Positions 15,733 to 34,514 of a DNA stretch of 34,514 nt are shown piece by piece. Numbering within the stretch: the stretch's first letter is position 1; each line of letters starts with the position of its first letter. Source of the DNA: Phycisphaerae bacterium. Lineage in GTDB: Bacteria > Planctomycetota > Phycisphaerae > UBA1845. The DNA is taken from the NCBI GenBank assembly GCA_041480905.1, contig JBGPAW010000001.1:1-34514 (forward strand). Direction: 5' to 3'. The notes beneath the pieces were generated by a model. That model was given only the letters and a program-made list of their open reading frames with translations, did not search any database and was not told the origin of the DNA. The position numbers and the translations under genes were made by a program.

Positions 15733-15802
15733 AACCATCGCACGAGCCGTGCCGGACCACCAGGGAGAACAAACGGAGTTTCTAAGCCGAGGAGTTAGGG
15801 TC

Positions 15803-18158: not shown

Positions 18159-18160
18159 TC

Positions 18161-19018
18161 GTGGCACGGCGTGTGGACAAACCGGTTCGTGGTCGGGCGG
18201 GAGGGTTCACCTTGCTGGAGGTGGTGCTGGCGATGTCCATCTTCACCGTGGTGAGCGGGGTGATGTACTGGTTCTTCTGGAATTCGCTGAGCGTCACGGA
18301 ACAGGAGACGGCCCAGGCGCGCAACGTGCAACTCATCCGCGTGGTGCTGGACCGGCTGGCGCAGGAAATCCGGCAGGCCGACGGTTTCGTGCCCGGTTAC
18401 GGGGCGGGGATCATCGGATACAAGCACGCCATTTCGATCAACACCACGGTCCTACCGGACAAGAAACTGATGTACCCGCGTTCCATTAAGGACCAACAAC
18501 AAGTGGGTCAGTTCGACGTCGAGGAGGTCCGCTACTACATCGGGTGGGACGAGGAGAACCTGGACGCGGAGGGCAATCCGCGGGCGTTGGGGCTGGTGCG
18601 GCGGGAGCGGAAGACCTTGCTCCAGGAAGTGGTGATCCGGGGCGACGAGCAAGCGGACACCGGTAACCAGGAACAGGCCGTCGCGATCAAGGAAGAACTC
18701 TACGCCCCGGAGCTCAAGTACATCGAGTTCAAGTACTTTGACGGCGCCACCTGGTGGGATGACTGGGAGATCACGCAGGGCAACGCCTTGCCGCAGATCA
18801 TCCGGGTGACGGTGGGGTTTGAGCCGGTGCTGCCCAAGGATGAGGAAATGAAACTGATGGAGGACGACTTTTTGCGGGACGAGGCCGAGTTGGTGCCCCT
18901 GGCCCCGGACCGCTTCGCCATGTTCATCCGCGTGGTGCAGGCGGATACGTTTTTCGGCTCGCGTCTGACGCGCGAGTCCTCGGCGCTGATGAACTCGGGG
19001 GAGAACAAGGGGTTCTAA
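18161..19018 (+). CDS. Minor pseudopilin, GspJ-like
   Basis: GTG start 2 nt after the upstream stop. ...RGRAGG|FTLLEVVLAMSIFTVVSGVMYWFF is a prepilin motif. It is followed by ARNVQLIRVVLDRLAQEIRQA, typical of GspJ-type pseudopilins. 285 aa. Confidence 0.7.
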   Translation: MARRVDKPVRGRAGGFTLLEVVLAMSIFTVVSGVMYWFFWNSLSVTEQETAQARNVQLIRVVLDRLAQEIRQADGFVPGYGAGIIGYKHAISINTTVLPDKKLMYPRSIKDQQQVGQFDVEEVRYYIGWDEENLDAEGNPRALGLVRRERKTLLQEVVIRGDEQADTGNQEQAVAIKEELYAPELKYIEFKYFDGATWWDDWEITQGNALPQIIRVTVGFEPVLPKDEEMKLMEDDFLRDEAELVPLAPDRFAMFIRVVQADTFFGSRLTRESSALMNSGENKGF

Positions 19019-19065: not shown

Positions 19066-20611
19066 GCAGGATCGCGGGTGCCAAGTTGGTTTCGTTGGTG
19101 GACGGCCGCAGAGGGACGGTGCCGGTAGGCGCGGACTGATCCTTCCGGTCGTGCTGCTGATCCTGGCGCTGCTCGCGCTGCTGGCGGCCAGCTTCGCCTT
19201 CCAGGTCAACGCGGATTCCGCCGCCACCCGGGCGCTGGTGGAGAGAATGCAGACCCGGCTGGCGGCGGAGGCGGGTTTCCAGTACGTAGCCTTGGTGCTG
19301 CGGGATCACCTCGAGGACGTGAACGCCTGGTACGATAACGAAGAGAAGTTTCGCGGCGTGGTGGTGTGGTCGGCCACCGGCGGGCTGTCCACCTTCGGCG
19401 CGGTGGAAAAGTCGGACACCCAGAGGAGCCAAGCTAAGGATAAAAACAGCGTCGCCCCGGCCTATCGCTTCAGCGTTGTCGCGGATGACCCCAACGACGA
19501 TCAGGTCAAAGTTCGCTATGGAATCACCGACGAGGCGTCCAAACTGAACATCAACACGGCCACGGCGGCCCAGTTGACCCGCCTGATCGCCCAGGTCGTC
19601 CCACCGGAGGTTCAGGTGGAGCCGCTGGTGGACGCTCTGCTGGACTGGCGCGACCCGGACGATACCGTGAGTTCCAACGGCGAGGGAGGCGGCGCGGAAA
19701 GCGACTACTACCGGTCCTTGAAGGTGCCGTATCGGTGCAAGAACGCCCCGTTCGACACGGTCGAGGAGCTGCTGATGGTCCGCGGGTTCACCGGGCAGAT
19801 TCTCTACGGGGAAGATGCGGACCGGAACGGGCTGCTGAGTCCCAACGAAGACGACGGGAATGTGACCTTCCCCCCCGACAACGCCGACGGAGCGCTCAAT
19901 CGGGGGCTTTATCCCTACATTACGGTTCACTCGCGGGAGTTCAACCGGGCCAACGACCGCAAGCCGCGCGTGGTGCTGGTGGGCGGCGGATCGAACACGC
20001 GCTTGGAGCTGGAACCCTTCTTCAGCGCGGAGGAGGCGGATTATCTGGTGGCACGGGCGGCGGCGACGGGGGAGTCCCGGCCAACGTCCCTCACCGCGTT
20101 CTTGGAGACGGCTTCGACCAACGGTCTGGTAAGCCCGTTTATGCTGGAGGATTTTCCGCGCATCGTGGACCGCTGCACGCTGGATCCTTCGCCGGAACTC
20201 CGCGGTCTGATCAACATCAATACCGCGCCGCCCGCCGTGCTGCGCTGTTTGGAGGGATTGACCGCTGAGGACGTCAACAACATCGTCCAGAAACGGGCGA
20301 CCTTGAGCGCCGAGACCAAACAGACCCCCGCCTGGCTGCTCACCCAAGGGGTGCTGGACCAGGAGAAATACGACGCGGTGGCGGAGGGGATCACCGCCCG
20401 CGGGCTACAGTTTACAGCCGAGGTGGTCGGATACGCCGATCACCTCGGGGTGCGGGCTCGCTTCCAGATTATTTTCGGAATGCGTGGCCCGGTGCCGCAA
20501 ATCCTGTACTATCGCGATCTGACCAACCTGGGAGTGCCTTATCCACTGACCCGCGAGGAAGAAGAAACAGGTGGTTATGCCCATGGGCTGGGTGGAAAGA
20601 CAACTGGTTAG
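19064..20611 (+). CDS. gspK: Type II secretion minor pseudopilin GspK-like
   Basis: 515-aa ORF with the hydrophobic N-terminus RRGLILPVVLLILALLALLAASFAF. GspK hallmarks are YGITDEASKLNINTATAAQLTRL, FDTVEELLMVRGFTGQILYG and GLININTAPPAVLRCLEGLTAEDVNNIVQKR. No clear SD precedes ATG 19064. Confidence 0.8.
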   Translation: MQDRGCQVGFVGGRPQRDGAGRRGLILPVVLLILALLALLAASFAFQVNADSAATRALVERMQTRLAAEAGFQYVALVLRDHLEDVNAWYDNEEKFRGVVVWSATGGLSTFGAVEKSDTQRSQAKDKNSVAPAYRFSVVADDPNDDQVKVRYGITDEASKLNINTATAAQLTRLIAQVVPPEVQVEPLVDALLDWRDPDDTVSSNGEGGGAESDYYRSLKVPYRCKNAPFDTVEELLMVRGFTGQILYGEDADRNGLLSPNEDDGNVTFPPDNADGALNRGLYPYITVHSREFNRANDRKPRVVLVGGGSNTRLELEPFFSAEEADYLVARAAATGESRPTSLTAFLETASTNGLVSPFMLEDFPRIVDRCTLDPSPELRGLININTAPPAVLRCLEGLTAEDVNNIVQKRATLSAETKQTPAWLLTQGVLDQEKYDAVAEGITARGLQFTAEVVGYADHLGVRARFQIIFGMRGPVPQILYYRDLTNLGVPYPLTREEEETGGYAHGLGGKTTG

Positions 20612-22157
20612 CATCGACTGGGATATCCGCAACCTGCGGGTGGTGTCCTTCACCGTGCGCGCCAAAGGGGACGTGCGGATCCGGAAGGTCTTTTCCGTGG
20701 CGATCCCTCCGGAGGTGAGCGTAGGCGATCCGGCGTCCTTCGGGCAACTCCTGGCGGAGGTGCTGCGGCGAGAGGAGATCGTGGCCAAGCGGATGGTGGT
20801 GGACGTGCCGCGGGATCAGGCGGTGCTCAATACCCTGCGGCTGCCGGTGGTTCCCGCGGACGACCTGGCGGCGATGGTGGAGTTTCAGATCGGCAAGGAG
20901 TTGCCGTTTCCGCTGGCGGCGGCGGTGACGGACTACGCGGTGCCGGACGAGCCGGACGAAGCGGGTACGCAAGAAGTGCTGGTCGCCGCCGTGCGGCACG
21001 AGGCCCTGGAGTATTACAAACAGACGGCCGAGGTGGCGGGCTTGAAGCTGGAGCGCATCGGTCTGCGTCCCTACGCCAACAAGGTGGCGGTAAATGAACT
21101 GCTCGGCGACACCCGGCACGAACGGGTCCTATTCGTGGACGTCGGCCCGGTCCTGAGCGAGATCGACGTGTTGCGGGACGGGAAGCTGGTCTTCTCGCGG
21201 GCGGCGTCGGTGCAGGTTCCCAGACCTCCCCCGAGTGCCGCGGCTCCGGCGACCGAAAAAAGCCCTTCGAGGCTCGACCTGGATCTCTGTCTCACGGGGG
21301 TCGTGGCGGAGGCGGTCCTGCCCGAACAAGACCGCGTGGTCTCGGCGCTGCTGCGCGAAGTGGCGTTGACGATCGAGGCCTATCGCGCCGGCGATCCGGG
21401 CGCGGACATGAACCACGTGGTGGTGGGGGGGGACACCGGGCTGGAAGAGGCTTTGTTGGGGGCCATCCGCCAGCGGTTCGAGATCACCGGGGAGCGCTAC
21501 AACCCGACGGCTTGCCTGGGTTGGGACGGCACCAGCGGGGCGGCGGCGGGCGGATTCGCCGCGGCCTTGGGTTTGGCGCTGGGTCACGCCGGGGCGGGAC
21601 GCCTGGACTTTGACTTCATGCACCCCAAGAAAGCGGTGCCGCGGAGCCGGCGCCGGCTGCGGAAGGCCCCTATCGCGGCGGCGGTCGTGCTGCTCTTCTG
21701 CGCGGCAGGAGCGGTGGCGTACGTCCGGGTGGTGGGCCCTAAGAAACAGCAAATCGCCAATCTGGAGAAACAAGTCGAGAAGGCCAACGCCCAGTTGAAA
21801 GAGTACAAGAAGTTCGGCGAGATGATGACCAAGGTGGAGGAATTCGAGCGGGAGCAGATTATCTGGCTCGACGAGTTGGCCGACTTCCTCTCCGTTTGGC
21901 CGGACACCGATCAGATCGTGCTGTCCTCGATTGATCTGTCGCAGAAGGAGGGGCTGATCCAACTCAAAGACATGTATTGCCAGGATGTCAACGTGGCGGA
22001 CGCCGCACGGGCGCGGTTGGATGCGTTCAGAAAATCCGACGACGGGCCTCTGCTCTATGACGCCACCTTGGGAGGCAATACGCCGCAGAAGGACGCGTAT
22101 TCGGTGAAGGCCTCGATGACCATCGAGGTGAAGAACCGCGGGGGTCGCGCGGATTAG
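20571..22157 (+). CDS. PilM-like (actin-fold) + PilN-like fusion; functional equivalent of GspL
   Basis: 528-aa ORF. The N-terminal part LVSIDWDIRNLRVVSFTVRAKGDVRIRK...VVDVPRDQAVLNTLRLPVVPADDLAAMVEFQIGKELPFP...FVDVGPVLSEIDV is PilM-like. A TM segment APIAAAVVLLFCAAGAVAYV, a coiled coil (QIANLEKQVEKANAQLKEYKK) and an alpha/beta domain then resemble PilN or the GspL periplasmic half. It overlaps the gspK-like 3' end by 29-41 nt. ATG 20583, behind AGGTGG, is the likely start. Confidence 0.7.
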   Translation: MVMPMGWVERQLVSIDWDIRNLRVVSFTVRAKGDVRIRKVFSVAIPPEVSVGDPASFGQLLAEVLRREEIVAKRMVVDVPRDQAVLNTLRLPVVPADDLAAMVEFQIGKELPFPLAAAVTDYAVPDEPDEAGTQEVLVAAVRHEALEYYKQTAEVAGLKLERIGLRPYANKVAVNELLGDTRHERVLFVDVGPVLSEIDVLRDGKLVFSRAASVQVPRPPPSAAAPATEKSPSRLDLDLCLTGVVAEAVLPEQDRVVSALLREVALTIEAYRAGDPGADMNHVVVGGDTGLEEALLGAIRQRFEITGERYNPTACLGWDGTSGAAAGGFAAALGLALGHAGAGRLDFDFMHPKKAVPRSRRRLRKAPIAAAVVLLFCAAGAVAYVRVVGPKKQQIANLEKQVEKANAQLKEYKKFGEMMTKVEEFEREQIIWLDELADFLSVWPDTDQIVLSSIDLSQKEGLIQLKDMYCQDVNVADAARARLDAFRKSDDGPLLYDATLGGNTPQKDAYSVKASMTIEVKNRGGRAD

Positions 22158-22181: not shown

Positions 22182-23501
22182 GTGATGAACCAACGTGAGA
22201 GAACTCTGCTGCTCGCGATCGTGGTGGCGGCCGGCGGGCTGCTCAGTTGGAAGGTGGTCATTCCCCGATGGCTGGCCCCCATGTTCGACTATGAGGCCAA
22301 AATCACCGAAAAGACAGAGGAGCTCAAGACAAAGATATCGGAGATTTCCGAACTGGACGATGCCCGGGAGAAGTATCGGGATTACGTTTATCGTACCGGA
22401 GGGACCGACGAGAAAGACGTGGGCGATCGGTTCCACGGCACCCTGAATGATTTGTTGAATCAGTGCCGGCTGGAGGACGTGCGGGTAACCCCCAAGAGCA
22501 GCGGCTCACCCAGCAAGACCGGCCTGATGACCCTGAACTACAACATCCGCGCGAGCGGTCCCTTGCAGCAAGCCGTGCTGTTCCTCAAGAGCTTTTATGA
22601 GCTGCCACACATCGCCCGGTTCAAGGACTTCAAGCTGACTCCCCAACAGGCACGCCGACGCGGCCAGCCGAGCGATGCGGTGGACCTGAGCGGTGACATC
22701 GAGGTGCTGGTGCCGCCCACCTTTTTCAGCCCGATCCGTGATCCGCTGGAACACCAACCCCCTCGGCTGGTCAAATACCACACCGACCACTTCGCTTCGA
22801 TATGGGAGAAACAACCGTTCACCCGGCCGCCGGTCGCGGTAGCCAAAGTGGAACCGCCCCCGACTCAGCCGCCCCCCCCGCCCCCCCCTCCGGGATGGAC
22901 GGGGGACCCTCTGCGTAATCAGAAGAAGATCGTGGGTTGTTGGGCGGCCAATCAGGAAGTGATGGTCACGAACACGGCCAGCAACCAGCGGGAGTACGTT
23001 CGGGTAGGGGGGCAGTTGGATGGCGGCAGGCTGCTCTTAGTGCATCCCTACGGCGTCATGGTGCGTAGAAAAGAGGGAAACGAGCGGCGAGAATACTTGT
23101 ATCCTCTGGGAGAGATGTTGTCCAGCGCGGTGGCTCTCGCGGAAGCGACCCGGGAACCGCAACTCCGCGCCGCAGCCCGCCATTATCTGACGGAGGAGAA
23201 ACCGAGCGTTGAGGGGGCGGAAAGCAACGGTGCCGTGGGGACGCCCGACCCAACCGCCGGAGCTTCCGGCGAACTGGCGGGGCCGCCCGAGAATCTGGCG
23301 GGGCCGCTGGTGCAAGCTACTCCAGTCCCCGCAGCCGAGGTATCGGTGTCGCAGGCGCCCCCGCCCACTACGTCTGTGGGGGAGATACCTCCGCCAGTGG
23401 GGCACCCCGAGCGGCGCCCGGGTTGGCCGACGACCGATCTGGCCGGTCCGCCGGTGGAGTTGGCCGGTCCGATCGTGGAGCCTAAGGGTGGAAAACCATG
23501 A
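22182..23501 (+). CDS. PilO/GspM-like membrane protein fused through a poly-proline linker to a PilP/GspC-HR-like beta domain, with a LAGP-repeat tail
   Basis: 439-aa ORF (GTG 22182 / ATG 22185). It has a TM segment LLLAIVVAAGGLLSW, a coiled coil, and a PilO-like core LMTLNYNIRASGPLQQAVLFLKSFYELPHIARFKDFKLTP. The linker is EPPPTQPPPPPPPPG. The segment IVGCWAANQEVMVTNTASNQREYVRVGGQLDGGRLLLVHPYGVMVRRKEG resembles the PilP/GspC HR domain. The tail carries four (E/N/D)LAGP motifs. Confidence 0.55.
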   Translation: MMNQRERTLLLAIVVAAGGLLSWKVVIPRWLAPMFDYEAKITEKTEELKTKISEISELDDAREKYRDYVYRTGGTDEKDVGDRFHGTLNDLLNQCRLEDVRVTPKSSGSPSKTGLMTLNYNIRASGPLQQAVLFLKSFYELPHIARFKDFKLTPQQARRRGQPSDAVDLSGDIEVLVPPTFFSPIRDPLEHQPPRLVKYHTDHFASIWEKQPFTRPPVAVAKVEPPPTQPPPPPPPPGWTGDPLRNQKKIVGCWAANQEVMVTNTASNQREYVRVGGQLDGGRLLLVHPYGVMVRRKEGNERREYLYPLGEMLSSAVALAEATREPQLRAAARHYLTEEKPSVEGAESNGAVGTPDPTAGASGELAGPPENLAGPLVQATPVPAAEVSVSQAPPPTTSVGEIPPPVGHPERRPGWPTTDLAGPPVELAGPIVEPKGGKP

Positions 23502-23562: not shown

Positions 23563-26500
23563 ATGCGTCAATTGCGTAGTAGCATCCGTCACGTCGTGAC
23601 CTGGGCGAGGTCGGCCCGTCGGCTGATCGGTCCGGTGGTCCTGAGTCTGGCGTTGGGTGCCGGGCTGCCGACCGGGAGAGCTGACGAACCGCCCGCGCCG
23701 GTCCGAAAGGGTGGCGAACCGGCCCGCGGGACGACCACGGAACCGGCCGGGGCGCGCCCGTCCCGACCGAAGCCGCCGAAGACTAGCGGTGTAGCCACGA
23801 AACCGAAGCCATCCCCGGTCACTCCGCCCGGCAAAACGCCGCCCCGACCGACCCCCGAGGGCGACAAGAATCCCCCACCGGAAGGTGCGGGATCGGCCGG
23901 CACCGGCCCGGAAGGCGAACCCCTGGAGAGCGGGATTGACGCCACCTATGAGCAGATGCTCAAACCGGCGGAGGAGCGGCGCTACTCGATCAGCATACAG
24001 GAGGGGAGCTACGCTGATTTGCTCGACGCCTTTTCGCGGATGTCCGGGCTGGCCATCCTGGGCGACACCCCGGCGGGGACGGTCACGTACGTCAGTACCG
24101 AGGAGATGGACTACACGGCGGCGCTGAGCCGCATGCGCAAAATTCTGTTCAACCATCCCGAGAAGTTCTACCTCTGGCGGGAGGGCAATACGCTGGAGGT
24201 GTTCCGGGTCACTGAAGCCCAGCGCAAGATGAAGCCCGATCGGATTCACACGAGCGTGCACGCTTTTCTGGCCGCCGAGCTGGATGAGATGGAAATCGTG
24301 CTGGTGCTGTATACGCCGGAGACCGGACGGGTGGCCGATTTGGAGTCCTTGCGGGACTTCATGCCCGACTACGTGCGGATCGCGCCCTATCGGGACAAGA
24401 ACGCGTTGACCATTCTGGCGCTGGCCCGGGACGTGAAGAAATACCTCGAACTGGTGGGGATCTTCGAAACCGCCGAAGGAGATCCGCGCCAGTTAAAGGC
24501 CCTGCCCATCCGCTACGTGTTGCCTTCCGAAGCCGTGGAGATGCTGTATCAGTTCATGCCGGCCCTGGCGGAGAGTGTTTCGGCCCCCAGCGCGCCGCCG
24601 CCGAAACCGCGCAAAGGGCAGCACCCCGCGGAAGCCAGCCTGGAGAGTGCCCGGGGTCACGGCATCGACCTGATTCCCTATGACGCGGTCCGCAAGCTGT
24701 TCGTCCGGGGCATGCCCGACAGGATCGCGGAGATCGAGAACTATCTGGAAATCATCGACGTCCAGCGCGGTCCCGGGGACAACCCGGTGATTGTGCCGCT
24801 GAAATACACGCGGGTGGAGCAGTTGCTCACCCTGCTGCGCCCCTTCTACACGGGAGAGCCCGCGGCGCAGGCGCCGCAGCCGCCCGCCGGCGGGAAAGGT
24901 AAGCGAGCGCCCGTGGTCAAGGCCGTGACCAACGAGTCAATCATCACCGATACCATCGAAATCTACGCCAACCCTGCGAACAACACCCTCATCGTCATGG
25001 CGGACGAGGAGCAACTGACCAAGCTGCGCATGTACGTGAGCCTGTTGGATATCCCTTCCCAGGACCAGACGGTCCGGGTGAAGTTGGAACACGCCGAACC
25101 CGAGGCGGTGGCGGCCTTGACGGTGGAAATCGCCCCGATCCTCGGTCCCAACACGGCGGTGGGACTGTTAGTGAAGGTGGATCCCGCCGGTGACGGAGTC
25201 CTGGTGATTGGTAACCCGCAGGGCGTCGAGTTGGCCAAGAGGATCATCGCCGACCTGGATCAGCCGGGGGAGGGTGGTCCGCCCGCCATTCACGCTTATC
25301 CGTGTGAGAACGCGAAGCCATCGGCCCTGATCGGGCTGTTGACGAACCTGGACCAGCAATCCGCAGGTGCGGCGCCCGCGGCACCACCGCAGCCGCCGGG
25401 CCCTGCCAAGAAAGGCCAACCACGGGCCGCCCGAAGACCGGTCCAAGGCGGCACGCGATACTACGGCGATGACGCCACCGGTTTGCTGTACGTGATCTGC
25501 ACGGACAGCGAATGGGAAGAAAGCTACCTGCCCCTGCTCAAGAAGCTCGATCAACAGGCGCAGACGGACCTCAAGGTGGTGGTGGTTCCCGTGGCCCACG
25601 GCGATCCGCAAAAAATCATCGAGTCTTTGGTGCAAGCCCTGAGCGGAGGGCAAAGAGGCGCCGCCATCCCTCCGCCGACCATGCTGCCGCATCCCGAGGG
25701 CGTCATGGTGGTCGGGGCTTCAGCGGCCGTGGTCGAACAGATTCGGAAGCTGGTGGCGGAGCTGGACGTCGACCCGGGGATCGAGCGACGGACCTTCACG
25801 CTGCAATATGCCGACCCCGCCGAGGTCAAAACGGTGCTCGACGCACTGGTCGTGCAGGGTGCCGGCCCCAGAATCACACCCAGGCGTGGAGGCAAGGGTC
25901 AACCGGCCCCTCCTCCGGCGCCCGGAGCCCCGAGCGTCCAGATCGTCCAGTCCGGACGGAATCTTCTGATCGTGGTAGCACCCGCGCAGGAGATGGCGGA
26001 GATCGCCGCGTTGATCACCGAGTTGGACGTCGATCCCCTGAATCTGCGCGTGAAAGTCTACGACTTCCCCGTGGGCAGCAACGTTCTGGAGATCGCCCAG
26101 ACCCTGTCCTCGTTCTATCCCGGCAGCGCGGCGGTGCCGGTAGCCGAAGCGACGGAGAAAGGCAAACCGCGTCCCCGGCAAATGACCGCGCCGGGCGACA
26201 TCCGCTTCATTCCCCAGCCCTCGGCGCACAAGATCCTGGTTTCCGCCCCGGCCGACATGTACCCCGACATCGAGGAAAAGATCGCGTTGCTCCGGCCGGA
26301 GGCGGGCATAGCCGGTCCCATGGTCGAGTTCTTTGAGGTGGCCCATCTCGACCCGCAAACGTTGACGGGGGTACTCGAACCGCTGCTGGAGACCAAGTAC
26401 CAGGAACTGGTGGACACGGGGGTGATCCCGGAGAAGCCCCCTGGAAAGGGCCCGGCCGCCAAACCCGTTTCCGTCACGCCCGATCCGCGCGGGGACCGCG

Positions 26501-29500
26501 TGATCGTCGTGGCCCCGGTCCAGATGATGGAGCCCGTGCGTAAGTTGATCGAGCGGCTGGACCGCCCCGATCGCGCGCGGGTGATGAAGACGGTCACGCT
26601 GGAAAAGGCCGACCCCAAGGAGATGGTGACCACCGTTCGAGCGCTGCTCTCCAGTCGTGGGGCGCTGCCGGCGGCGCCGACGACGGCGCCGGCCCGACCG
26701 GGCGGTCAACCTCCCGGAAGAGGTCGAGCGGCGCCCCCGCAACGGCCTCAAGCCGGCGAGACGGAAACCGTGACCGTTGTGGAAGCGCCGGGCGGGTCCG
26801 CCATTCTGTTGAGCGGGTACGAGGATGACGTCGCCCGGGTGGAACAGTGGATCAAGGACCTGGACGAGGCGGCCAAGAGCGGGCGGGACATCAAGATTTA
26901 CGCGCCCAAGAACGTCGCCGTCGAGGATTTCGCCGATGCGGTGATGACGCTGGTAGACTCCGGCGGCGGAGCGGCGGCCGCACCGCCCAAACCTAAAGGC
27001 GGCAAGGAAGGGGAGAGTCTCTTTGACATGGACCTTTTCAGCAAAGGCGGGCCGCGGCGCGGCAAGGACATCTACTTGGTGACCGACACCTGGGCCCGCA
27101 CCATGCTGGTCAGCGCCATGCCGTCGAAGATTCGCGAGATTGATCGGTTGTACGAGGTGTACGAAGGCAAGGAGGGCGAGGAGCCCCAGATGCCCGTCAG
27201 CAAGCCGCAACCCTACGAGATCTACACACTCAAGAATCGCAAGAGTGCTTATGACGCGGTCTGGGATCTGGAATCGTACATTGATAAGCTCTGGCCCGAT
27301 CCGAGCAACAAGCCGAAGGTGGATTACATCCCCTTCACCCCGGACCTCATTATCCGGTGTCGTCCCGAGGACATGCAGGGCGTCAAGGACCTGATCGAGA
27401 AATACGTCGACAAGCCGGGCGAGAAAACGACGCTCGAAGAACGAACGGCTTACGAGGTGATCCAGTCGCAGGGGATTACCGCACGCGATCTGGCCCGGCT
27501 GGTCCAGTCGCGCGTCGGCCCCGATAAGGTGCATCTGCAGGAGATCAGCGCCGCGGATCAAGACTACATCAAGAAGGTGGAGGAAATCACGCCGTGCGTG
27601 CTGCCGGTCTGCGCGGTGCAAGGGATGCGCGCCGTGGCTTGCGGAATGGCCGACGAACCTGCCAAGTCCACCACCCAGCCCGCGGACCTGAACTCACCAG
27701 CGTTCAACGAGCAGATGAAAATGAAACAAGACCTGCTGCGGAGCCTCTCGGATAAAACCGCCTCCGGCGGTGAGGCGGCGACGTCGCAGCCTGCCGGCGC
27801 CGAAGTCGGGCCGGGTACTCCGGCCGGCCAGCCGGCCCCGGCGACAGAGGCCGCGGGACCCGAGCAGGTGCTCACCATCGCGCCGGACGACGAGAAAGGC
27901 GTGGTGGTGATCAAGGGCACCAAGCAGGAGGTTGCCGAGCTGAAAGACGTCATCGAGAAGATCGTGGAGGAGTTGCAGAAGGTGCCGCAACCGCCGGACA
28001 TCCGCGTGTTCCGTGTGAAGTTCGTAGACGTGAACACGGCCGCCGACATTCTCGAAGCGATGTTCAACGCGCCGCGCCAGCGGAACCTGACTCCGCAACA
28101 GATTCAACAGATGCAGCAGTTGCAGATGCTGCAACAACAACAGCAGCAACAACGGCAGCAGCGTCAGCCGCAGCAACCCCCCCAGGCCGGGCAAGAAGAG
28201 GACAAGGGCAAGGGTAAGCAGCGTAAGGAGGGCGAGGAGGCGCAGCAACCGCAAACGCCGCAACAAGAGCCCGGTCAAATCCGCGTCTACCCCGACGCGC
28301 GCACGCACACGCTGATCATCCGGGCAAGTCCGGAACAATACCCCCCGATCATCAAGCTGCTGGCCACGGTCGACAAGAAAGGGACCGCCGCTGACTTCCG
28401 CATCTACGCGCTCAAGCGGCTGAACGCCGCCGAGGTGGAACAAAAGCTGAAGGAGATGCTCGGATTGGAAGGGCGGTCGGCCCGCGCCTCGCAGCCTCGT
28501 CCGACGACGCCGGGCGGTCGGCCCGGCGTGCCGGTTCAGAACCCGCAGGGGCAGCCCATAGAGTTCATGATGGACATGGGCGGCGAATCCCTCTCCCTCA
28601 CCGGCGCCGAACGCGTCACTATCTCCAGCAACCCCGCGACGAACACGATCATGGCCATGGCCCCAGAGAAGACCTTGGATCTGATCGGGCAACTCATCGA
28701 CCAACTGGAGGAGCAGGAAGTCCCACTGTGGGTGACCAAGACGTATGAGTTGAAGCATGCCGACGCCGCGGACGTGGCCGCGCAGTTGGAGAAAACGTTC
28801 AGCGGCAAGAGTCAGGGCAAAGGAGTCGAAGGCTATGATCCGTCCGACGTGAATCGGCCCACGTTCATCCCCGACGCGCGGATGAACAGCATCACCGTGC
28901 GGGTGCTGGAACTGGACCTGCCCAAGATCGAGCCGCTGATCGAGCAATTCGACCGCGAGAGCCGCGACGACAAGCCCAGGTACATCAAGCTGCAGTACGC
29001 CAAGCCCAGCGAGGTGGCCAAAAAGCTGCAAGAGGCCTTTGCCGGGGTGGGCGCGGGCAAGGGCGGAAAAAAGAGCAAGATCCAGATCACCGGCGACGAC
29101 GGGAGCATGCAGTTGATCGTGATCGCTCCGCCGGACACGTTCGCTGACCTGCAGGACATGGTCGCCAAGCTCGACGTGGAACGGACCAACCTGGAGTTCC
29201 GGACCTTCTCCCTCACCTACGCCCGGGCGCCCGAGGTGCTGCGCCAGATGACCGAGCTCGTCCGTGTACTCATCCAGACCGGGCAGAAGAGCGGCGTCGA
29301 TCTGGGCGTGTTCAGTGCCGTGGCCGACGAGCCCACCAACGCGCTCGTCGTCGCGGGTGAGCCGACCATCTTCCCCATCGTGGAAGGCGTGCTCAAGAAG
29401 ATCGACGTGCCGCCGCCCGAGCCGGTAGCCCTTGAAACGCGCATTTACCGGCTGGTGTCCGCCCAAGCGGAGGACGTGGCCAACACGATCAACCGGCTGT

Positions 29501-31245
29501 TCGGGCAGGTGCGCGGCAAGGGCGGGGCCGAGCCCGCCCGGGCCGAGCCCAACCCCAGCACCAACACCGTGCTGGTCCGAGGCACCAAGAGCCAGCAGGA
29601 GGAAATCTTCAACCAGGTCATCAAACCGCTGGACGAGTTCGCCGAGCAACCGATCAACCTCAAGCAGGCGGTGATCGACCTGCAATACGCCAAGGCGGAC
29701 GAGGTGGCCAACTACCTCAACGAGTGGTTCCGCAACCAGCAGCAGACGATCCGGGGCGCGGGGATCAAGGGCATCAACCCGCTCGATTTTACGGTCTCCA
29801 TCACACCCGAGGTGGCGAGCAACAAACTGCTGGTGACGGCCAACGACAAGAATCTCGAGCTCATCCGGCAGCGCGTGGCGGACGTGGATCGCAAGGAGTT
29901 CGGGGACCTGACGGCGCGGGTGACCATGCCGTACGCGCTCATGAACGCCGACCCCAACGCCGTGGCGCAGATCGTGAGCCGGCATTTCCAGCCGACCGGC
30001 GGCAAGATCGCGGAACGGGACCGCGTGGACGCGGCTCCGGAGGTCGCCACCATGCGCGTCGTAGTGACGGCCAGTCAGCAAAACCAGGAAAAAATCGCCG
30101 CGCTCATCGAGCAGTTGGACAAGGACAGCGTCGTGACGCGCCCCACGCACGTGGTCGAGTTGCACAACAGCGACGCCGCGGCGGCGGCCCGGGCGTTGCA
30201 GGAGATGTTCGTGCAGGGACGCGCGGGGCCCCGCGGCCAGCAGACCGTCTCGATCTCCAACCCGCAGGGCAGCAATTCACTGCTGATCCGAGCGAATGAG
30301 AAGGAGTTGGCCGAGATTCAGGCGGTCATCACCCAGATGGAAGCAACCGGGACCGCCGGCGGCGGCGAGATCAAGATCATCCCGCTCAAGTACACCGACG
30401 CCGAGGAGACTCGGGTCATCCTGGAGGAATACCTGCGCAAACCCGGCGCCCGCGGCGGGGGTCGGGGCGGCGGAGGCGGGGCCGAGTTGGTGGGCGACTT
30501 GCGGATCAGCGTTTCCACCCAGAACAACTCGCTGATTCTGTCGGGGAACGCCGAACAACTCGCCCAGGTCACCGAAGTGGTGGCCCGCATCGACGTGGAG
30601 GTGGAAGGCGCCGGCAACGTGCCCAAGATCATCCGGCTGGAGCACGCTCAGGCGTCGGCCATCCAGCCCCAATTGGAGGAACTGTTCAAACAGCAGCCGG
30701 GTCGGCGTTCGCCGGGCGGCGGAGGCGCCGCCCTCCAGCCGGTGATCGTGGCCGACGACGCGAGCAATTCGCTGATCGTGCGGGCCAACCCGGCGGATTT
30801 CAACGCCATCGAACGGTTGGTGAAGGACTTGGACAGCGAGGGAGCGGCGGGCGCCGGCATTCGGATCGTCCGCGTGGCTCCCGGGGTGAATGTGGTGGAC
30901 ATGGCGGCGATGCTCGAAGACAGCTTCAATGCCAGTCTCAAGAGCCAGCCGGGCGGTGGCGGTCGCGGGCGACCTGTCCAGCAGTTGACCATCACGCCCG
31001 ACACACGCACCAACAGCTTGATCCTGGCGGGCGCCCCGGCGATGTTCGACGATATCGAAGCCACCATACGGACCCTGGAAAAGATGGGTCCGCAGGGCGG
31101 CCAAGTCACTCGGATCATCCGTACAAAAAATGCGGATGCGCGGGACGTAGAGTCTGTTATTCGGGACCTGACGGGAGATAATACCGGCACGAAGAGTTCC
31201 GGTCGCGGGGGCGGTTCGCGCGGAAGCCGCCCACCGCGGAAGTAG
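23563..31245 (+). CDS. Giant (2560 aa) secreted protein composed of ~25-28 tandem secretin N-domain / ring-building-motif repeats; no secretin beta-barrel domain recognisable
   Basis: GGAG precedes ATG 23563. The signal-like N-terminus is RLIGPVVLSLALGAGLPTGRA|DEP, followed by a Pro/Lys-rich ~90 aa. Then ~70-100-aa units recur with the GspD N-domain hallmark (beta-strand + x(L/F)K(Y/H)xxAxE(V/T)xxxL... + D/NxxxNxL(I/V)(I/V)xAxxxxxxxIxxLIxxLD). Examples: IPLKYTDAEETRVILEEYL...STQNNSLILSGNAEQLAQVTEVVARIDVE; IRLEHAQASAIQPQLEELF...DDASNSLIVRANPADFNAIERLVKDLD; TLQYADPAEVKTVLDAL...SGRNLLIVVAPAQEMAEIAALITELDVD. It ends in an RGG-rich tail without a GspD/PilQ C-domain-like segment. Confidence 0.85.
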   Translation: MRQLRSSIRHVVTWARSARRLIGPVVLSLALGAGLPTGRADEPPAPVRKGGEPARGTTTEPAGARPSRPKPPKTSGVATKPKPSPVTPPGKTPPRPTPEGDKNPPPEGAGSAGTGPEGEPLESGIDATYEQMLKPAEERRYSISIQEGSYADLLDAFSRMSGLAILGDTPAGTVTYVSTEEMDYTAALSRMRKILFNHPEKFYLWREGNTLEVFRVTEAQRKMKPDRIHTSVHAFLAAELDEMEIVLVLYTPETGRVADLESLRDFMPDYVRIAPYRDKNALTILALARDVKKYLELVGIFETAEGDPRQLKALPIRYVLPSEAVEMLYQFMPALAESVSAPSAPPPKPRKGQHPAEASLESARGHGIDLIPYDAVRKLFVRGMPDRIAEIENYLEIIDVQRGPGDNPVIVPLKYTRVEQLLTLLRPFYTGEPAAQAPQPPAGGKGKRAPVVKAVTNESIITDTIEIYANPANNTLIVMADEEQLTKLRMYVSLLDIPSQDQTVRVKLEHAEPEAVAALTVEIAPILGPNTAVGLLVKVDPAGDGVLVIGNPQGVELAKRIIADLDQPGEGGPPAIHAYPCENAKPSALIGLLTNLDQQSAGAAPAAPPQPPGPAKKGQPRAARRPVQGGTRYYGDDATGLLYVICTDSEWEESYLPLLKKLDQQAQTDLKVVVVPVAHGDPQKIIESLVQALSGGQRGAAIPPPTMLPHPEGVMVVGASAAVVEQIRKLVAELDVDPGIERRTFTLQYADPAEVKTVLDALVVQGAGPRITPRRGGKGQPAPPPAPGAPSVQIVQSGRNLLIVVAPAQEMAEIAALITELDVDPLNLRVKVYDFPVGSNVLEIAQTLSSFYPGSAAVPVAEATEKGKPRPRQMTAPGDIRFIPQPSAHKILVSAPADMYPDIEEKIALLRPEAGIAGPMVEFFEVAHLDPQTLTGVLEPLLETKYQELVDTGVIPEKPPGKGPAAKPVSVTPDPRGDRVIVVAPVQMMEPVRKLIERLDRPDRARVMKTVTLEKADPKEMVTTVRALLSSRGALPAAPTTAPARPGGQPPGRGRAAPPQRPQAGETETVTVVEAPGGSAILLSGYEDDVARVEQWIKDLDEAAKSGRDIKIYAPKNVAVEDFADAVMTLVDSGGGAAAAPPKPKGGKEGESLFDMDLFSKGGPRRGKDIYLVTDTWARTMLVSAMPSKIREIDRLYEVYEGKEGEEPQMPVSKPQPYEIYTLKNRKSAYDAVWDLESYIDKLWPDPSNKPKVDYIPFTPDLIIRCRPEDMQGVKDLIEKYVDKPGEKTTLEERTAYEVIQSQGITARDLARLVQSRVGPDKVHLQEISAADQDYIKKVEEITPCVLPVCAVQGMRAVACGMADEPAKSTTQPADLNSPAFNEQMKMKQDLLRSLSDKTASGGEAATSQPAGAEVGPGTPAGQPAPATEAAGPEQVLTIAPDDEKGVVVIKGTKQEVAELKDVIEKIVEELQKVPQPPDIRVFRVKFVDVNTAADILEAMFNAPRQRNLTPQQIQQMQQLQMLQQQQQQQRQQRQPQQPPQAGQEEDKGKGKQRKEGEEAQQPQTPQQEPGQIRVYPDARTHTLIIRASPEQYPPIIKLLATVDKKGTAADFRIYALKRLNAAEVEQKLKEMLGLEGRSARASQPRPTTPGGRPGVPVQNPQGQPIEFMMDMGGESLSLTGAERVTISSNPATNTIMAMAPEKTLDLIGQLIDQLEEQEVPLWVTKTYELKHADAADVAAQLEKTFSGKSQGKGVEGYDPSDVNRPTFIPDARMNSITVRVLELDLPKIEPLIEQFDRESRDDKPRYIKLQYAKPSEVAKKLQEAFAGVGAGKGGKKSKIQITGDDGSMQLIVIAPPDTFADLQDMVAKLDVERTNLEFRTFSLTYARAPEVLRQMTELVRVLIQTGQKSGVDLGVFSAVADEPTNALVVAGEPTIFPIVEGVLKKIDVPPPEPVALETRIYRLVSAQAEDVANTINRLFGQVRGKGGAEPARAEPNPSTNTVLVRGTKSQQEEIFNQVIKPLDEFAEQPINLKQAVIDLQYAKADEVANYLNEWFRNQQQTIRGAGIKGINPLDFTVSITPEVASNKLLVTANDKNLELIRQRVADVDRKEFGDLTARVTMPYALMNADPNAVAQIVSRHFQPTGGKIAERDRVDAAPEVATMRVVVTASQQNQEKIAALIEQLDKDSVVTRPTHVVELHNSDAAAAARALQEMFVQGRAGPRGQQTVSISNPQGSNSLLIRANEKELAEIQAVITQMEATGTAGGGEIKIIPLKYTDAEETRVILEEYLRKPGARGGGRGGGGGAELVGDLRISVSTQNNSLILSGNAEQLAQVTEVVARIDVEVEGAGNVPKIIRLEHAQASAIQPQLEELFKQQPGRRSPGGGGAALQPVIVADDASNSLIVRANPADFNAIERLVKDLDSEGAAGAGIRIVRVAPGVNVVDMAAMLEDSFNASLKSQPGGGGRGRPVQQLTITPDTRTNSLILAGAPAMFDDIEATIRTLEKMGPQGGQVTRIIRTKNADARDVESVIRDLTGDNTGTKSSGRGGGSRGSRPPRK

Positions 31246-31250
31246 CGGTC

Positions 31251-31278
31251 AGCTTTCGGCCATCAGCTACCGGCCAAA
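31251..31278. repeat. Degenerate heptad array AGCTTTC GGCCATC AGCTACC GGCCAAA, 5 nt after the giant-gene stop
   Basis: Read directly from the sequence. The 7-nt period alternates the palindromic tetramers AGCT and GGCC. GGTCAGCTTTCGGCC resembles TGTCAGCTTTCAGCT at 16269 and the minus-strand ATCAGCTTTCGGCG at 19031..19044. It can also fold as CTTT(C)GGCC...GGCCAAAG. Confidence 0.7.
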
Positions 31279-31336
31279 GGATGGCAGGCTGGGGTCGGGA
31301 ACTCGCAATTTTGAACTCGGAAGCGAGGGTCTGGTG

Positions 31337-34300
31337 ATGAACACGATCGCCGTTTCCTTGATCGTAGGGTGGTTGGGCATTTCGGCCCTGGCCCAGGAGC
31401 AACCCGCCGGCGAAAGTACGGCGCTCTCCGAACGGGAACAGGTCGACGCGCTGATGGACGAGGCGCTGGCCCGTCAGGACGAAGCCAAGCCGCGGCCTCC
31501 GGCGCGGCGCGACACCAGGTCCGCCGACCGCAGGGAGGCTGCGCCCACCGCACCCCTCGCCACGACCAACGGCGCAGAGGAAGGCACGCCCCCCGAGCGC
31601 GCCGGTCAGCCGCTCCCGTCCATGAGCGGGGTCAACCTCTCCGGCGCCAACGTGGACATCCAGACCGTGGGGTCGGGCACCATCATCATCACCGGCAACG
31701 AGAGCGACGTAGCCATGATCGAGGCCTTGGTGGATCTGCTCGACCGCCAGGGCCCCCGGAACGAGATGCGGGTGGTCACCCTGGAACAGGCGGGCGCGAA
31801 GCGCGTGGCGGAGAAGGTGCAGTCCATCTATTCGAAGCTCAAGGCCCGGCCGGAGGACCAAGTGGCGTTGGTCGCGGTGACCGAAAGGGTGGTGGTGATC
31901 GCGGCGCCCGCCCATCTGATGGACGAAGTGCTCAACATCGTCAAGACCATCGACATCCAGGGCACATTCCCCAGCACCGCCAGCATGACCTTCCAGATCA
32001 AGCACCGCAAGGCCTCGGAAGCGGCGATCCAACTGAAGAAAGTCCTCGATGCCCTGCGCAAGAAAGCGGGCGAGGACGCCGGCCCCGAGGCCGAGATCAT
32101 CCCGCTCGACGCCAACAACACGATTCTGATCACGGCCCCGGAGAGCGAGCGTGCCAAGATTCAGGGCCTGCTGGATGCCATCGACGTGGAGCCCGCGGCG
32201 GGCTGGGGCGACGTCCTGCTGACCGTCTTCCCGCTGCGGAACAGCAAGGCGGAGGAGTTGGCCAAGACTATCAAGGAGCTGATTACGGCCCAGGCGGCGG
32301 CGGACAAGGCCAAACCGGGCGAGGAGCCGCTCCGCCGCCTGCGCATGGTGGTGCGGACGCCGGACGGTCAGCAGCGTGAGTTGCCGCCCTTGGACCTGGA
32401 GAAGCCCCTGAAGCTCATCGCGGACAAAGGGACGGAATCGCTGATCGTGGCGACGGTGGAGTCCAACGTCGCCCCGCTGGGTGAGATCGTGGACATTCTG
32501 GATGGCGTCCCCGGCGCCGAGGAAGTGGGCTGCCAGATTCTCCATCTGCGTTACGCCGACGCCGAGTCGGTTTCCAAGATGCTCGACGACATGTTCAAGA
32601 AGGGCAAGGACCTGCCCAAACCAGCCCCGGGCAGCGAGAGCAGTACGGCGGTCCCCGAAGGACCGATCGGAGAAGCTCTCTCCTACAACGTCACCCTGGT
32701 CACCGACCTGCGGACCAACACCCTGGTGGTGGCCGGCAAGGCGGCGCAGGTCGCGCTGGTCGCCGAGTTGGTGAACAAGATCGACGTACCCTCGGCCGCC
32801 ACCAAGTTCCCGCTGCGGCTGGTCCCCCTGGCCAATACCGACGCGACCCACATGGGCAAAATCCTCGAGGAACTCTTCAAGCAGCGGGCGGAATCGTTGG
32901 AGAAGAGCAACGCGGGCAAGTCCGTCGTCGAGCGGGAGAAGGTGTTCCTGGCCGTGGACATCCGCCGCAACGCGCTGATCGTCGCGGCCTCCGAGGAAAA
33001 CTACAACGAAATCCTGGAGATCACGGCCAAGCTCGACGGCGCCGGGCAACGGCTGATCGAGAACATCCGCATCATCAACTGCGCGAACACCTCCGCGGGC
33101 GACCTGGCTAAGAAAATCGAGGACCTGTGGAAGCGCAAGGCCGATCTGCGCAAGGAAGGGAAATTGCCCGCCGATCTGCCCGTCATCGTGGCGGATCAGC
33201 GGAGCAATGCGCTGGTGATCGCCTCGTCGGTGGAGGACTATGACGAGATCAAGCGGTTGGTCGATCGGCTGGAGAGCCAGCCGCTGGCCCCCATCGCCCA
33301 AATCCGGCTGATCGAGATCAAACACAACGACGCCTCCAAGATCAGTGAGATGCTCAAGAAGCTGTTTGAGGAGCGGATGAAGCAGCGCCTGATCGAGGGG
33401 CAGAAGGAGAACCCCGCCGATCGGGCGGCCTTCGCCGACGATCCGGCTACCAACACCATTCTGGTGGCTTCGTCGCAGGAGAACTACGACGAGATGATGC
33501 GGATCATCGCGGCCCTCGACACCGAGCTGGACGTGGAAGGTGTGGTCCAGTTCTTCGTCCTGCACAACGCCGAAGCGAGCACCGTGCAGAAGAAGATCGA
33601 CGACCTGTTCAAGGCCGGCATCTACAGCCCGACCAAGGGGCTGGACAGCAAGCTCATCCAGGAGCGCCAGAAAGTGACCGTGGTCGCCGACCCGCGCTCC
33701 AACGCGGTCATCGTCAGCGCCAGCAAGCCCAACCTGGCCATCGTCCAGAAACTGATCGAGGTGATGGACACGGAAGACGCGCCGCTGCTCCAGCAGGACA
33801 CGCGCGTGTTCGCGCTCGGGACGGCCGACGCCCTCAAGCTGGCCAAGATGCTCAAGGACCTCTTCGACGGCATGAAGAGCAGCGCCCCCGAGCCCGATCT
33901 GGTCCGCCCGCCGACCATCATCGCCGACGAGCGGAGCAACAGCCTGTTCGTGACCGGCTCGCGGGACAGTCTGAAGCGCTGCGACGACCTGATTGGTCGG
34001 ATTGAGGAGCAGAACGTGCAGCGCACGGCGGTGTTCCAGATCTATCCGCTCAAGCATTCCGCCGCCGCTCCGCTGGCCCAGAAGATGCAGGAGGCGTTCG
34101 ACAAGCGGGAAAAGAGCGGCGAGCAGAGCGCCCGCACCCCGATCTACATCATGGCGGACGAGAGCACCAACAGCCTGATCTGCAGCGCCTCCCGCGACGA
34201 TCAGGAACTGATCGCCAACTTGCTTACACTGTTGGACAAGCCGTCCAGCATTGCCAAGCAGTTCGAGATCTTCCCGCTGAAGGTGGCCAAGGCCCAGGGG

Positions 34301-34514
34301 CTGGCCGATCGGCTGGACAAGCTGTTCAAGAGCCAGGCCAAAGGGGGCGGCGGAGGCGGCGGACGGGCCGACGCCATCGCCGTCGAGCCGGACCCGCGCA
34401 CCAACGCGTTGATCGTCTGGGCCGCCCCGTCGCAGTTGGACAACGTCAAGGAGATCATCGCCAAGCTGGACACCCATGAGCCGGTGAAGGAAATGCAGAT
34501 GCGGGTCATCCGGC
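31337..34514 (+). CDS. Second secretin-like protein (GspD-family N-domain repeats), 3' end beyond the window (at least 1059 aa)
   Basis: Own translation from (GTG 31334) ATG 31337 gives MNTIAVSLIVGWLGISALA|QEQPAG..., a signal peptide. An open frame then runs to the window end with at least ~12 secretin-N repeats. Examples: MRVVTLEQAGAKRVAEKVQSIY...VTERVVVIAAPAHLMDEVLNIVKTID; ILHLRYADAESVSKMLDDMF...DLRTNTLVVAGKAAQVALVAELVNKID; IYPLKHSAAAPLAQKMQEAF...ADESTNSLICSASRDDQELIANLLTLLD; ...DPRTNALIVWAAPSQLDNVKEIIAKLD. It is missing from the ORF track because it has no stop in the window. The 1106-aa minus-strand ORF 31157..34477 is its shadow. Confidence 0.85.
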   Translation, partial: MNTIAVSLIVGWLGISALAQEQPAGESTALSEREQVDALMDEALARQDEAKPRPPARRDTRSADRREAAPTAPLATTNGAEEGTPPERAGQPLPSMSGVNLSGANVDIQTVGSGTIIITGNESDVAMIEALVDLLDRQGPRNEMRVVTLEQAGAKRVAEKVQSIYSKLKARPEDQVALVAVTERVVVIAAPAHLMDEVLNIVKTIDIQGTFPSTASMTFQIKHRKASEAAIQLKKVLDALRKKAGEDAGPEAEIIPLDANNTILITAPESERAKIQGLLDAIDVEPAAGWGDVLLTVFPLRNSKAEELAKTIKELITAQAAADKAKPGEEPLRRLRMVVRTPDGQQRELPPLDLEKPLKLIADKGTESLIVATVESNVAPLGEIVDILDGVPGAEEVGCQILHLRYADAESVSKMLDDMFKKGKDLPKPAPGSESSTAVPEGPIGEALSYNVTLVTDLRTNTLVVAGKAAQVALVAELVNKIDVPSAATKFPLRLVPLANTDATHMGKILEELFKQRAESLEKSNAGKSVVEREKVFLAVDIRRNALIVAASEENYNEILEITAKLDGAGQRLIENIRIINCANTSAGDLAKKIEDLWKRKADLRKEGKLPADLPVIVADQRSNALVIASSVEDYDEIKRLVDRLESQPLAPIAQIRLIEIKHNDASKISEMLKKLFEERMKQRLIEGQKENPADRAAFADDPATNTILVASSQENYDEMMRIIAALDTELDVEGVVQFFVLHNAEASTVQKKIDDLFKAGIYSPTKGLDSKLIQERQKVTVVADPRSNAVIVSASKPNLAIVQKLIEVMDTEDAPLLQQDTRVFALGTADALKLAKMLKDLFDGMKSSAPEPDLVRPPTIIADERSNSLFVTGSRDSLKRCDDLIGRIEEQNVQRTAVFQIYPLKHSAAAPLAQKMQEAFDKREKSGEQSARTPIYIMADESTNSLICSASRDDQELIANLLTLLDKPSSIAKQFEIFPLKVAKAQGLADRLDKLFKSQAKGGGGGGGRADAIAVEPDPRTNALIVWAAPSQLDNVKEIIAKLDTHEPVKEMQMRVIR

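Follow-up and report, generated by a model that had tools for sequence, protein, structure and literature searches.

The 34,514-nt stretch of Phycisphaerae DNA analyzed here (positions 1 to 34,514 of contig JBGPAW010000001.1, NCBI GenBank assembly GCA_041480905.1; hereafter, the window) contains, as its longest open reading frame (ORF), a gene coding for a 2560-amino-acid (aa) barrel-less protein composed of secretin N-domains (hereafter, the giant), followed directly by the gene of a true secretin. Our results suggest that the giant is probably one of the two chains of a giant type II secretin, namely the inner one, close to the inner membrane, this secretin having been split by gene fission and being rejoined through a split domain. 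The underlying homology and history, namely an ancient and conserved fission of a giant type II secretion system (T2SS) secretin, are very likely on the basis of the sequence comparisons.

The giant carries a Pro/Lys-rich spacer after its signal-peptide-like stretch, extending to approximately residue 125 (sequence inspection). The following region, residues 135–231, is colinear with the first (N-terminal) domain of single-chain giant secretins, and its profile together with orthologues (six sequences) matched the N0 domains of XcpQ/GspD (5mp2, 4e9j, and 5wln; residues 15–97 of these structures) and PilQ (4ar0), with E-values from 5e-5 to 4e-4. The N0 is visible only with this six-sequence profile, and a phmmer search with giant residues 121–496 against the PDB retrieved nothing relevant. 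Beyond N0, Pfam detects Secretin_N (PF03958) with E=3.6e-189 and 20 stretches above threshold, while a repeat hidden Markov model (HMM), built and iterated on the family, gives 25 matches, 22 of which span at least 70% of the model. Counting two or three degenerate copies found by eye, the giant contains approximately 24–26 N-domains and one half-domain. The inter-domain linkers of the array are regular (8–13 aa), as expected for a uniform stack. The repeats are 61–123 aa long, with low-complexity insertions of variable length in many α1-β2 loops, and share 5–36% pairwise identity (mean 19%). At the DNA level, the longest repeat family is 51 nt at 60–75% identity, in addition to one 32-nt CAA microsatellite.

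No match to PF00263, STN, or AMIN was obtained in the giant with Pfam, even at E<=1, and the giant did not match a barrel HMM built from 24 related secretins with all filters off and E<=1000 (positive control, 3.7e-119). Therefore, the giant alone is not a secretin in the strict sense, as it has no barrel, and it is a secretin fragment by its N0 and its Secretin_N domains. An earlier note, made from the sequence alone, had described a signal peptide, a Pro/Lys spacer, and an RGG tail, all of which are present in the translation, and had counted 25–28 repeats, which is about right considering the numbers above. It had also reported that no barrel was recognizable, which Pfam and the family barrel HMM bear out; indeed, the Pfam check that it proposed for Secretin_N, Secretin, STN, and AMIN yielded Secretin_N matches only. 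Its proposal of old, selected repeats devoid of long DNA-level repeats agrees with the mean identity and the short DNA families that we found. It missed the N0 as the first domain, the half-domain as the last repeat, and the split origin of the giant and the secretin, as well as the fact that, up to the window end, the downstream gene too codes for little else than Secretin_N domains.

Two repeats of the array display particular loops. The α1-β2 loop of repeat 13 contains a Gln-rich low-complexity insertion (giant residues 1512–1541, window 28096–28185, with the CAA repeat at 28131–28162), one of many such loop insertions, whose structural position is the same as that of the fission site. Repeat 12 contains a conserved hydrophobic loop with a Cys, ITPCVLPVCAVQGMRAVACGMADEP, after which come a short helix, a low-complexity stretch, and then the β2-β3-α2 half, the same layout as at the giant/secretin junction. 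P0002 and P0004 have similar loops, and so does the single-chain P0035, where the position is comparable (P and L numbers denote related proteins and loci, respectively). This loop may act as a gate, may contact the membrane or the wall, or may be what an older split left behind.

The two genes end and begin with complementary parts of one domain. The last match of the giant to the repeat HMM (residues 2518–2549/2553) covers only model positions 1–32 to 1–36, and the first match of the window secretin (residues 108/111–136) covers only positions 39/44–69. Such complementary halves (approximately 1–35 of the HMM on the giant and 39–69 on the secretin) were present in all seven gene pairs examined, and in two of the seven the concatenated giant end and secretin start were called as one domain spanning positions 1–69. 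The β1-α1 half-domain ending was observed in all 15 complete giant homologues printed. On the secretin side, a strict test accepting only a C-terminal half located right before the first full domain retained at least 55 of 74 partner-type secretin clusters (0 of 74 in shuffled controls), and most of the partner secretins failing it show the motif by eye. The conservation of both halves lies inside the range of intact domains (0.33 for the giant half, with intact domains at 0.24–0.57; 0.43 for the secretin half, with intact domains at 0.30–0.63), whereas the secretin spacer between the signal peptide and the half-domain is poorly conserved (identity 0.18). The last 25 aa of the giants have a net charge of +2 to +9 in all 16 family members with a C-terminus, and 73% of the secretin spacers are net acidic. 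Taken together, these comparisons indicate that the split runs through one Secretin_N domain, both halves of which are retained on two proteins.

The giant and the downstream secretin are encoded in different reading frames. The secretin has a signal peptide of its own, with a Kyte-Doolittle hydrophobicity of 2.24, and no N0, its residues 1–99 consisting of the signal peptide and the spacer; the N0 is found on the giant only. Therefore, given the separate ribosome-binding site, the different frames, and the separate signal peptide, the two genes give two separate products. The barrel of the window secretin lies past the window end, but a 78%-identical Planctomycetota contig from a metagenome-assembled genome (MAG), L001, shows a typical barrel, and full-length orthologues of 1547–1744 aa (L002 and other loci) present the PF00263 barrel at their C-terminus. 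A programmed frameshift or read-through joining both genes was considered and rejected, since the two frames are not related in the same way in all lineages and every secretin comes with a ribosome-binding site and a signal peptide of its own.

The compatibility of the two halves was addressed with AlphaFold2, joining giant residues 2508–2560 to secretin residues 23–140 with the native tails kept. The multiple sequence alignment (MSA) combined the window chimera with 11 giant C-termini, one secretin N-terminus, and three natural single-chain segments, 16 rows in all. The predicted local distance difference test (pLDDT) was 86–91 on both halves and 42–55 on the linker between them. The strands of the model are 7–13, from the giant, and 138–142 and 146–152, from the secretin; as this is the sole giant strand, it can be paired only with secretin strands. 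The model thus supports the two halves being compatible as one folded domain, which does not in itself prove their association in trans.

The barrel-less homologues of the giant (1,931–3,574 aa, three partial), with identities as low as 27%, all originate from Phycisphaerae/Planctomycetota MAGs, and in databases they are labeled as “hypothetical” or “secretin N-terminal domain-containing protein.” In every readable locus (L002/3, L004/5, L008, L010, and L011), the giant is located directly before a 1,547–1,744-aa barrel secretin and after the gspF...gspL-unknown series, so that the order of giant and secretin is seen in the window, L002, L004, L008, L010, and L011, with L001 showing the junction only. 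The intergenic spacers of the split pairs measure 91–236 nt, their frame relation differs between lineages, and the lineages over which both halves are conserved share only 27–30% overall identity. As lower bounds, at least 18 giants and at least 74 partner-type secretin clusters are present in metagenomes. The database search suggested in the earlier note for pairs of a repeat-only ORF and a secretin thus gave members from uncultured Phycisphaerae/Planctomycetota only; such MAGs are also the closest relatives, in agreement with the planctomycete-like source considered in that note.

In the same operon slot, L006, L007, and L012 contain a single secretin of 3906–4447 aa. Such single-chain giants (P0019–P0037; 2,969–4,447 aa), which are more distant matches from MAGs of Phycisphaerae and other groups, combine the same N0 head with 28–49 Secretin_N domains and PF00263, and are named “type II secretion system protein D,” “secretin N-terminal domain-containing protein,” or “hypothetical” in the databases. 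The sums of N-domains over the split pairs counted (33–44, and approximately 39–40 for the window pair) fall inside this single-chain range. In BLASTP, giant residues 1569–2426 align colinearly with P0020 residues 1739–2566, and residues 225–1690 of the partner secretin with P0020 residues 2762–4200. The possession of many N-domains is thus, as far as these comparisons show, a property of the whole secretin clade, and the giant is no free-standing architecture. Of the two roles envisaged in the earlier note, the evidence favors that of a ring adaptor or extension for the downstream secretin over that of a very long periplasmic conduit of stacked rings, the giant corresponding to the N-terminal two-thirds of a split secretin. 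The 3233-aa P0032 was also considered as a distant barrel-less member and was rejected; it ends (L009, 17343–17761) in the polylinker-like GSSRVDLQACKLE, 59 nt before the contig end, and from this ending we take it to be a chimeric or truncated contig rather than a genuine barrel-less protein.

Regarding the history of the split, in a neighbor-joining tree of the last three N-domains and the barrel, a single clade with 97/100 bootstrap unites the partner secretins and, under midpoint rooting, lies within the single-chain forms. In their nearest single-chain relatives, P0021, P0031, and P0026, the orthologous domain is intact and carries a 170–330-aa low-complexity insertion exactly in the α1-β2 loop. 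This loop opens in P0021 and P0031 with the same basic Gly/Ser/Arg stretch as the tail of the giant, and in P0026 with a short Asn/Gln segment followed by a Gly-rich basic stretch. Within P0021 residues 2889–3091 (L012, approximately 17670–18270) and P0031 residues 2766–3060, an “MP...” segment precedes a hydrophobic stretch with the strength of a signal peptide (Kyte-Doolittle 2.1–2.25); no clear Shine-Dalgarno site was found upstream of the L012 “MP...” segment. A fission inside an expanded loop would be the simplest history, because the fusion of unrelated genes would not make a whole domain from two halves. A misassembly by repeat collapse was rejected, as there are no long DNA repeats.

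From these elements, the following scenario can be proposed. The ancestor would have been a single-chain secretin of approximately 4,000–4,400 aa, comprising an N0, a barrel, and some 40 N1-type domains, and gene fission would have cut it in one of these N-domains, within the expanded α1-β2 loop. The upstream product would have kept the signal peptide, the N0, approximately 24 N-domains, and the orphan β1-α1 half with its basic tail, and the downstream product would have gained its own ribosome-binding site and signal peptide, followed by the orphan β2-β3-α2 half, approximately 14 N-domains, and the outer-membrane barrel. Both chains would be exported and oligomerize like other secretins, the orphan halves complementing each other in trans to rebuild one N-domain and thereby locking the two ring stacks in register and 1:1. 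Approximately 40 stacked rings would then form one continuous conduit, reaching roughly 120–160 nm at 3–4 nm per ring, a length estimated with the Thermus PilQ (350 Å, six rings and a barrel) as the scale. The N0 ring at the bottom would dock on the inner-membrane platform, probably on the HR-like domain at the C-terminus of the 439-aa protein whose gene lies just upstream, and the GspG pseudopilus or the cargo would travel inside. Ring formation, association in trans, conduit length, and the N0 partner are all features that we infer. We consider trans-complementation together with a continuous conduit of more than 100 nm about as probable as its opposite; that such a conduit of approximately 40 tiers runs from an N0-GspC-like contact at the inner membrane to the outer-membrane barrel, across the enlarged periplasm of Phycisphaerae/Planctomycetota, is proposed somewhat more tentatively. 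An enlarged, variable periplasm is described for Planctomycetota (PMC11131199), a description of the phylum and not of the envelope of this uncultured host.

Several observations weigh against this reconstruction and must be considered. The ring oligomerization of such diverged N-domains is assumed by analogy to GspD/PilQ/InvG, and the association in trans is likewise a proposal. For a tube of 120–160 nm, the periplasm would have to be very wide and the pseudopilus very long, unless transport proceeds in another way. The AlphaFold2 model is a single-chain chimera whose MSA contained natural single-chain homologues, and a single-sequence AlphaFold2 prediction of a 321-aa chimera, without MSA, was uninformative (pLDDT 53). 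Furthermore, Foldseek retrieved no significant match to the split-domain model in the PDB (best E=1). The top matches below significance were secretin N-domains and KH domains, among them EpsD (6i1y) over 164 columns with a root-mean-square deviation of 2.5 Å, and the lack of significance is likely due to the 100-residue insertion. The tree is unrooted (midpoint only), and consequently the direction, fission or fusion, rests mainly on the half-domain argument; from their sequences, P0021 and P0031 may be secondary re-fusions, or contain an internal translation start, rather than representing pre-fission intermediates. From the colinear BLAST alignments it also follows that the split pair has, at its junction, one extra domain compared with P0020. 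Lastly, GspE is not in the window: neither it nor the prepilin peptidase GspO was found among the large window ORFs scanned with Pfam. Both are probably encoded elsewhere in this genome; in L007, a T2SSE gene is located beside the operon, divergently upstream.

Three other explanations of the giant can be weighed against its being the inner chain of a split secretin. The giant could be an independent periplasmic scaffold, forming its own ring stack or fiber on the inner-membrane platform via N0 and meeting the secretin only by ring-on-ring stacking or by electrostatics between tail and spacer, in which case the half-domains would be tolerated scars and not a coupling device. We consider this unlikely. 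Multi-protein ring stacks are generally known to be the rule in type III secretion system (T3SS) and type IV pilus (T4P) machines, the basic tails and acidic spacers could mediate a contact alone, and trans-complementation is a proposal, with a non-significant Foldseek result. However, both halves are conserved like intact domains across lineages that share 27–30% identity, the adjacent spacer having drifted to 18%, they are exactly complementary in every pair examined, and AlphaFold2 pairs them with a pLDDT of approximately 90. The array could also function as a flexible tether, with its domains as beads on a string, or as a rail binding substrate or peptidoglycan, without any closed-ring stack, keeping the outer-membrane pore linked to the inner-membrane platform as the width of the periplasm changes. 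The long low-complexity insertions in many α1-β2 loops and the repeat lengths of 61–123 aa are in agreement with this idea, as are the enlarged, variable periplasm described for Planctomycetota (PMC11131199) and the flexible, unevenly spaced rings of Thermus PilQ (PMC5745081). Nevertheless, the short and strikingly uniform linkers (8–13 aa) fit a fixed stacking geometry better, and every Secretin_N domain of the characterized secretins forms a ring (general knowledge; PMC5745081), making a tether or rail more improbable still than a scaffold.

An artefactual split, by an error of sequencing or assembly or by a recent nonsense or frameshift mutation in a single giant gene, is effectively refuted. 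Single-chain forms do exist, and one “barrel-less” relative in the databases, P0032, is truly an artefact. However, the split is present in seven independently assembled lineages, down to 27% identity, with intergenic spacers of 91–236 nt and varying frame relations; every downstream gene comes with a separate start, ribosome-binding site, and signal peptide; partner-type secretins form at least 74 clusters; and no DNA repeats able to mislead the assembly are present.

The genomic context of the giant is that of a T2SS operon (Table 1). The giant is the last-but-one gene of the operon shown in the window (gspF-G-pseudopilins-K-L-M/C-like), with Pfam support from T2SSF, T2SSG, N_methyl, T2SSJ (weak), T2SSK, and PilM_2, and the gene order is kept in eight related loci. 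These Pfam matches, together with the 12 Secretin_N stretches encoded downstream, confirm the placement in the earlier note of the giant in the secretin slot of a T2SS-like operon, upstream of a second secretin-like gene. The operon start adjoins mutS (region 11358–14419), which directly precedes gspF; gspF is also the first gene in L002, L004, L006, L007, and L012. The ATG of the second minor pseudopilin gene overlaps the stop codon of the first by 4 nt (ATGA), which suggests translational coupling. The gspL-like product presents a cytoplasmic PilM_2 actin-like domain, one transmembrane (TM) segment, and a periplasmic coiled-coil and domain. The 439-aa protein in the gspM position has orthologues in all the split and fused loci. 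Its N-terminal TM segment is followed by a GspM/PilO-like region, which a poly-Pro linker separates from the conserved β-rich C-terminal domain; the protein did not match anything in Pfam, even at E<=10. The top PDB match to a profile of its C-terminal domain was the GspC HR (3oss_C), a weak match (E=0.085 over 23 residues). This protein is a candidate GspC-HR/PilP-like partner of N0, possibly a GspM-GspC fusion contacting it. Upstream of the operon are unrelated housekeeping genes, including mutS, prfB-like, and gcvT/H. Two other unrelated genes code for a response regulator-GGDEF-HD(-GYP-like) protein (window 471–2156, minus strand) and for a 592-aa fusion of PKD repeats and a cyclophilin-type peptidyl-prolyl isomerase (window 5890–7668, plus strand).

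Table 1. Features of the giant, the downstream secretin, and the T2SS operon, with positions in the window.
Feature	Window positions	Residues	Strand	Basis or remark
gspF, platform protein of the inner membrane; opens the T2SS operon	14419..15627		+	Pfam T2SSF E=5.6e-58
gspG, major pseudopilin	15704..16258		+	Pfam T2SSG E=7.4e-24, and N_methyl
Three minor pseudopilin genes	16318..19018		+	N_methyl motifs; weak T2SSJ match
Minor pseudopilin 1	~16318-17286, start uncertain		+	N_methyl at residues 68-91 of longest ORF
Minor pseudopilin 2, MKRGFMLLEVVV...	17283-18158		+	Translation, N_methyl
Minor pseudopilin 3, GspJ-like	18161-19018		+	Weak T2SSJ match
gspK-like minor pseudopilin, 515 aa	19064..20611		+	Pfam T2SSK_1st E=1.2e-16, and HHH_3/T2SSK
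gspL-like protein	20571..22157		+	Pfam PilM_2 E=5.6e-17
439-aa bitopic protein, gspM position	22182..23501		+	Sequence layout; no Pfam match
Giant, barrel-less secretin N-domain protein, 2560 aa	23563..31245		+	ATG start; ORF, Pfam, repeat HMM
Signal-peptide-like N-terminus, hydrophobic core LIGPVVLSLALGAGL	23563..23682	Giant 1-40	+	Sequence inspection
N0 domain	23965..24255	Giant 135-231	+	Colinear alignment with single-chain giants; profile matches
Array of ~24 complete Secretin_N domains (N1-type, β-α-β-β-α)	24292..31080	Giant 244-2506	+	Pfam and repeat HMM
Conserved Cys-containing hydrophobic loop ITPCVLPVCAVQGMRAVACGMADEP in repeat 12	27586..27660	Giant 1342-1366	+	Sequence comparison
Terminal half-domain, β1-α1 of Secretin_N, VTRIIRTKNADARDVESVIRDL	31105..31170	Giant 2515-2536	+	Repeat HMM
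Basic Gly/Ser/Arg-rich tail and stop codon	31171..31245	Giant 2537-2560	+	
Intergenic spacer, 91 nt	31246..31336		+	GAGGG Shine-Dalgarno-like site 7 nt before the secretin ATG
True secretin gene (proposed outer chain)	31337..34514, window ends after 1059 codons		+	12 Secretin_N stretches (Pfam)
Secretin signal peptide (1-22) and spacer with one predicted helix (23-99)	31337..31633	Secretin 1-99	+	
Initial half-domain, β2-β3-α2 of Secretin_N, NLSGANVDIQTVGSGTIIITGNESDVAMIEALVDLLD	31634..31744	Secretin 100-136	+	Repeat HMM

No published description of giant or split bacterial secretins was found in the literature searched, which is not proof of absence; a preprint on giant genes of Omnitrophota mentions gspD only as a neighbor. 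The characterized secretins present 2–6 periplasmic rings, in contrast to the 28–49 N-domains of the giant clade and the approximately 40 distributed over two chains here. If these domains stack, the channel would be four to five times longer than that of Thermus PilQ, and the adaptation of T2SS/T4P machines to very wide periplasms would become directly testable by cryo-electron tomography. If the proposed conduit is real, it would far exceed every other known secretin channel in length, stand out as a landmark in tomograms, and possibly account for some of the planctomycete envelope pores that lack an explanation, and the “piston” action of the pseudopilus over such a distance would have to be rethought. 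A fission in the middle of a domain, with both halves long kept, would represent a natural case of split-protein complementation joining two homo-oligomeric ring stacks 1:1, and the presence of N0 and barrel on separate chains would make the inner-membrane contact and the outer-membrane pore genetically separable. For annotation, the giants (at least 18) and the partner secretins (at least 74) of metagenomes could be recognized as the two parts of a single machine component.

Among the known systems, GspD/XcpQ/PulD (e.g., PDB 5wln, 5wq7, and 3ezj) share with the window pair the succession of N0 and N1-type Secretin_N domains and the gsp operon with F, G, minor pseudopilins, K, and L, the partner gene here ending in the PF00263 barrel. 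In contrast to GspD, one chain of approximately 650–750 aa with N0–N3, here N0 and approximately 24 N-domains are located on a barrel-less chain, approximately 14 N-domains and the barrel on a chain devoid of N0, and one N-domain is divided between them. The single-chain giants (P0019–P0037) are found in the same operon, with the same N0 head and colinear with the giant and the secretin, but as one polypeptide. The PilQ of Thermus thermophilus, with six periplasmic rings (N0–N5) in a 757-aa chain and a length of 350 Å, has been described as among the largest characterized (PMC5745081). As proposed here, its extra N-domain rings span an unusually wide periplasm, and its N1–N5 domains are β-α-β-β-α with loop insertions; it differs in having six rings on one chain instead of approximately 40 domains on two, and in belonging to a type IVa pilus, whereas the operon here is of the T2SS type (GspG).

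Separate barrel-less periplasmic proteins with small α/β domains, whose rings are coaxial with a secretin, are also known from the T3SS (PrgH/PrgK-InvG) and the T4P (PilP-PilQ). However, PrgH/PrgK and PilP are anchored in the inner membrane, belong to other families, and have 1–3 domains, whereas the giant is a secretin fragment without membrane anchor. A closer parallel to the split itself is found in the T2SS-derived system of the mitochondria of some protists, in which the secretin is split into several polypeptides, GspD and GspDN1/2/3 (PMC8134430). There, N-domains are likewise located on barrel-less proteins, with the same kind of intra-domain split. Nevertheless, this system is eukaryotic and highly reduced, its pieces are single or half-domains instead of an array of 25 domains, and it has no N0 or GspC, whereas N0 is retained in the giant. 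The splits of the mitochondrial and the Phycisphaerae secretins are independent events.

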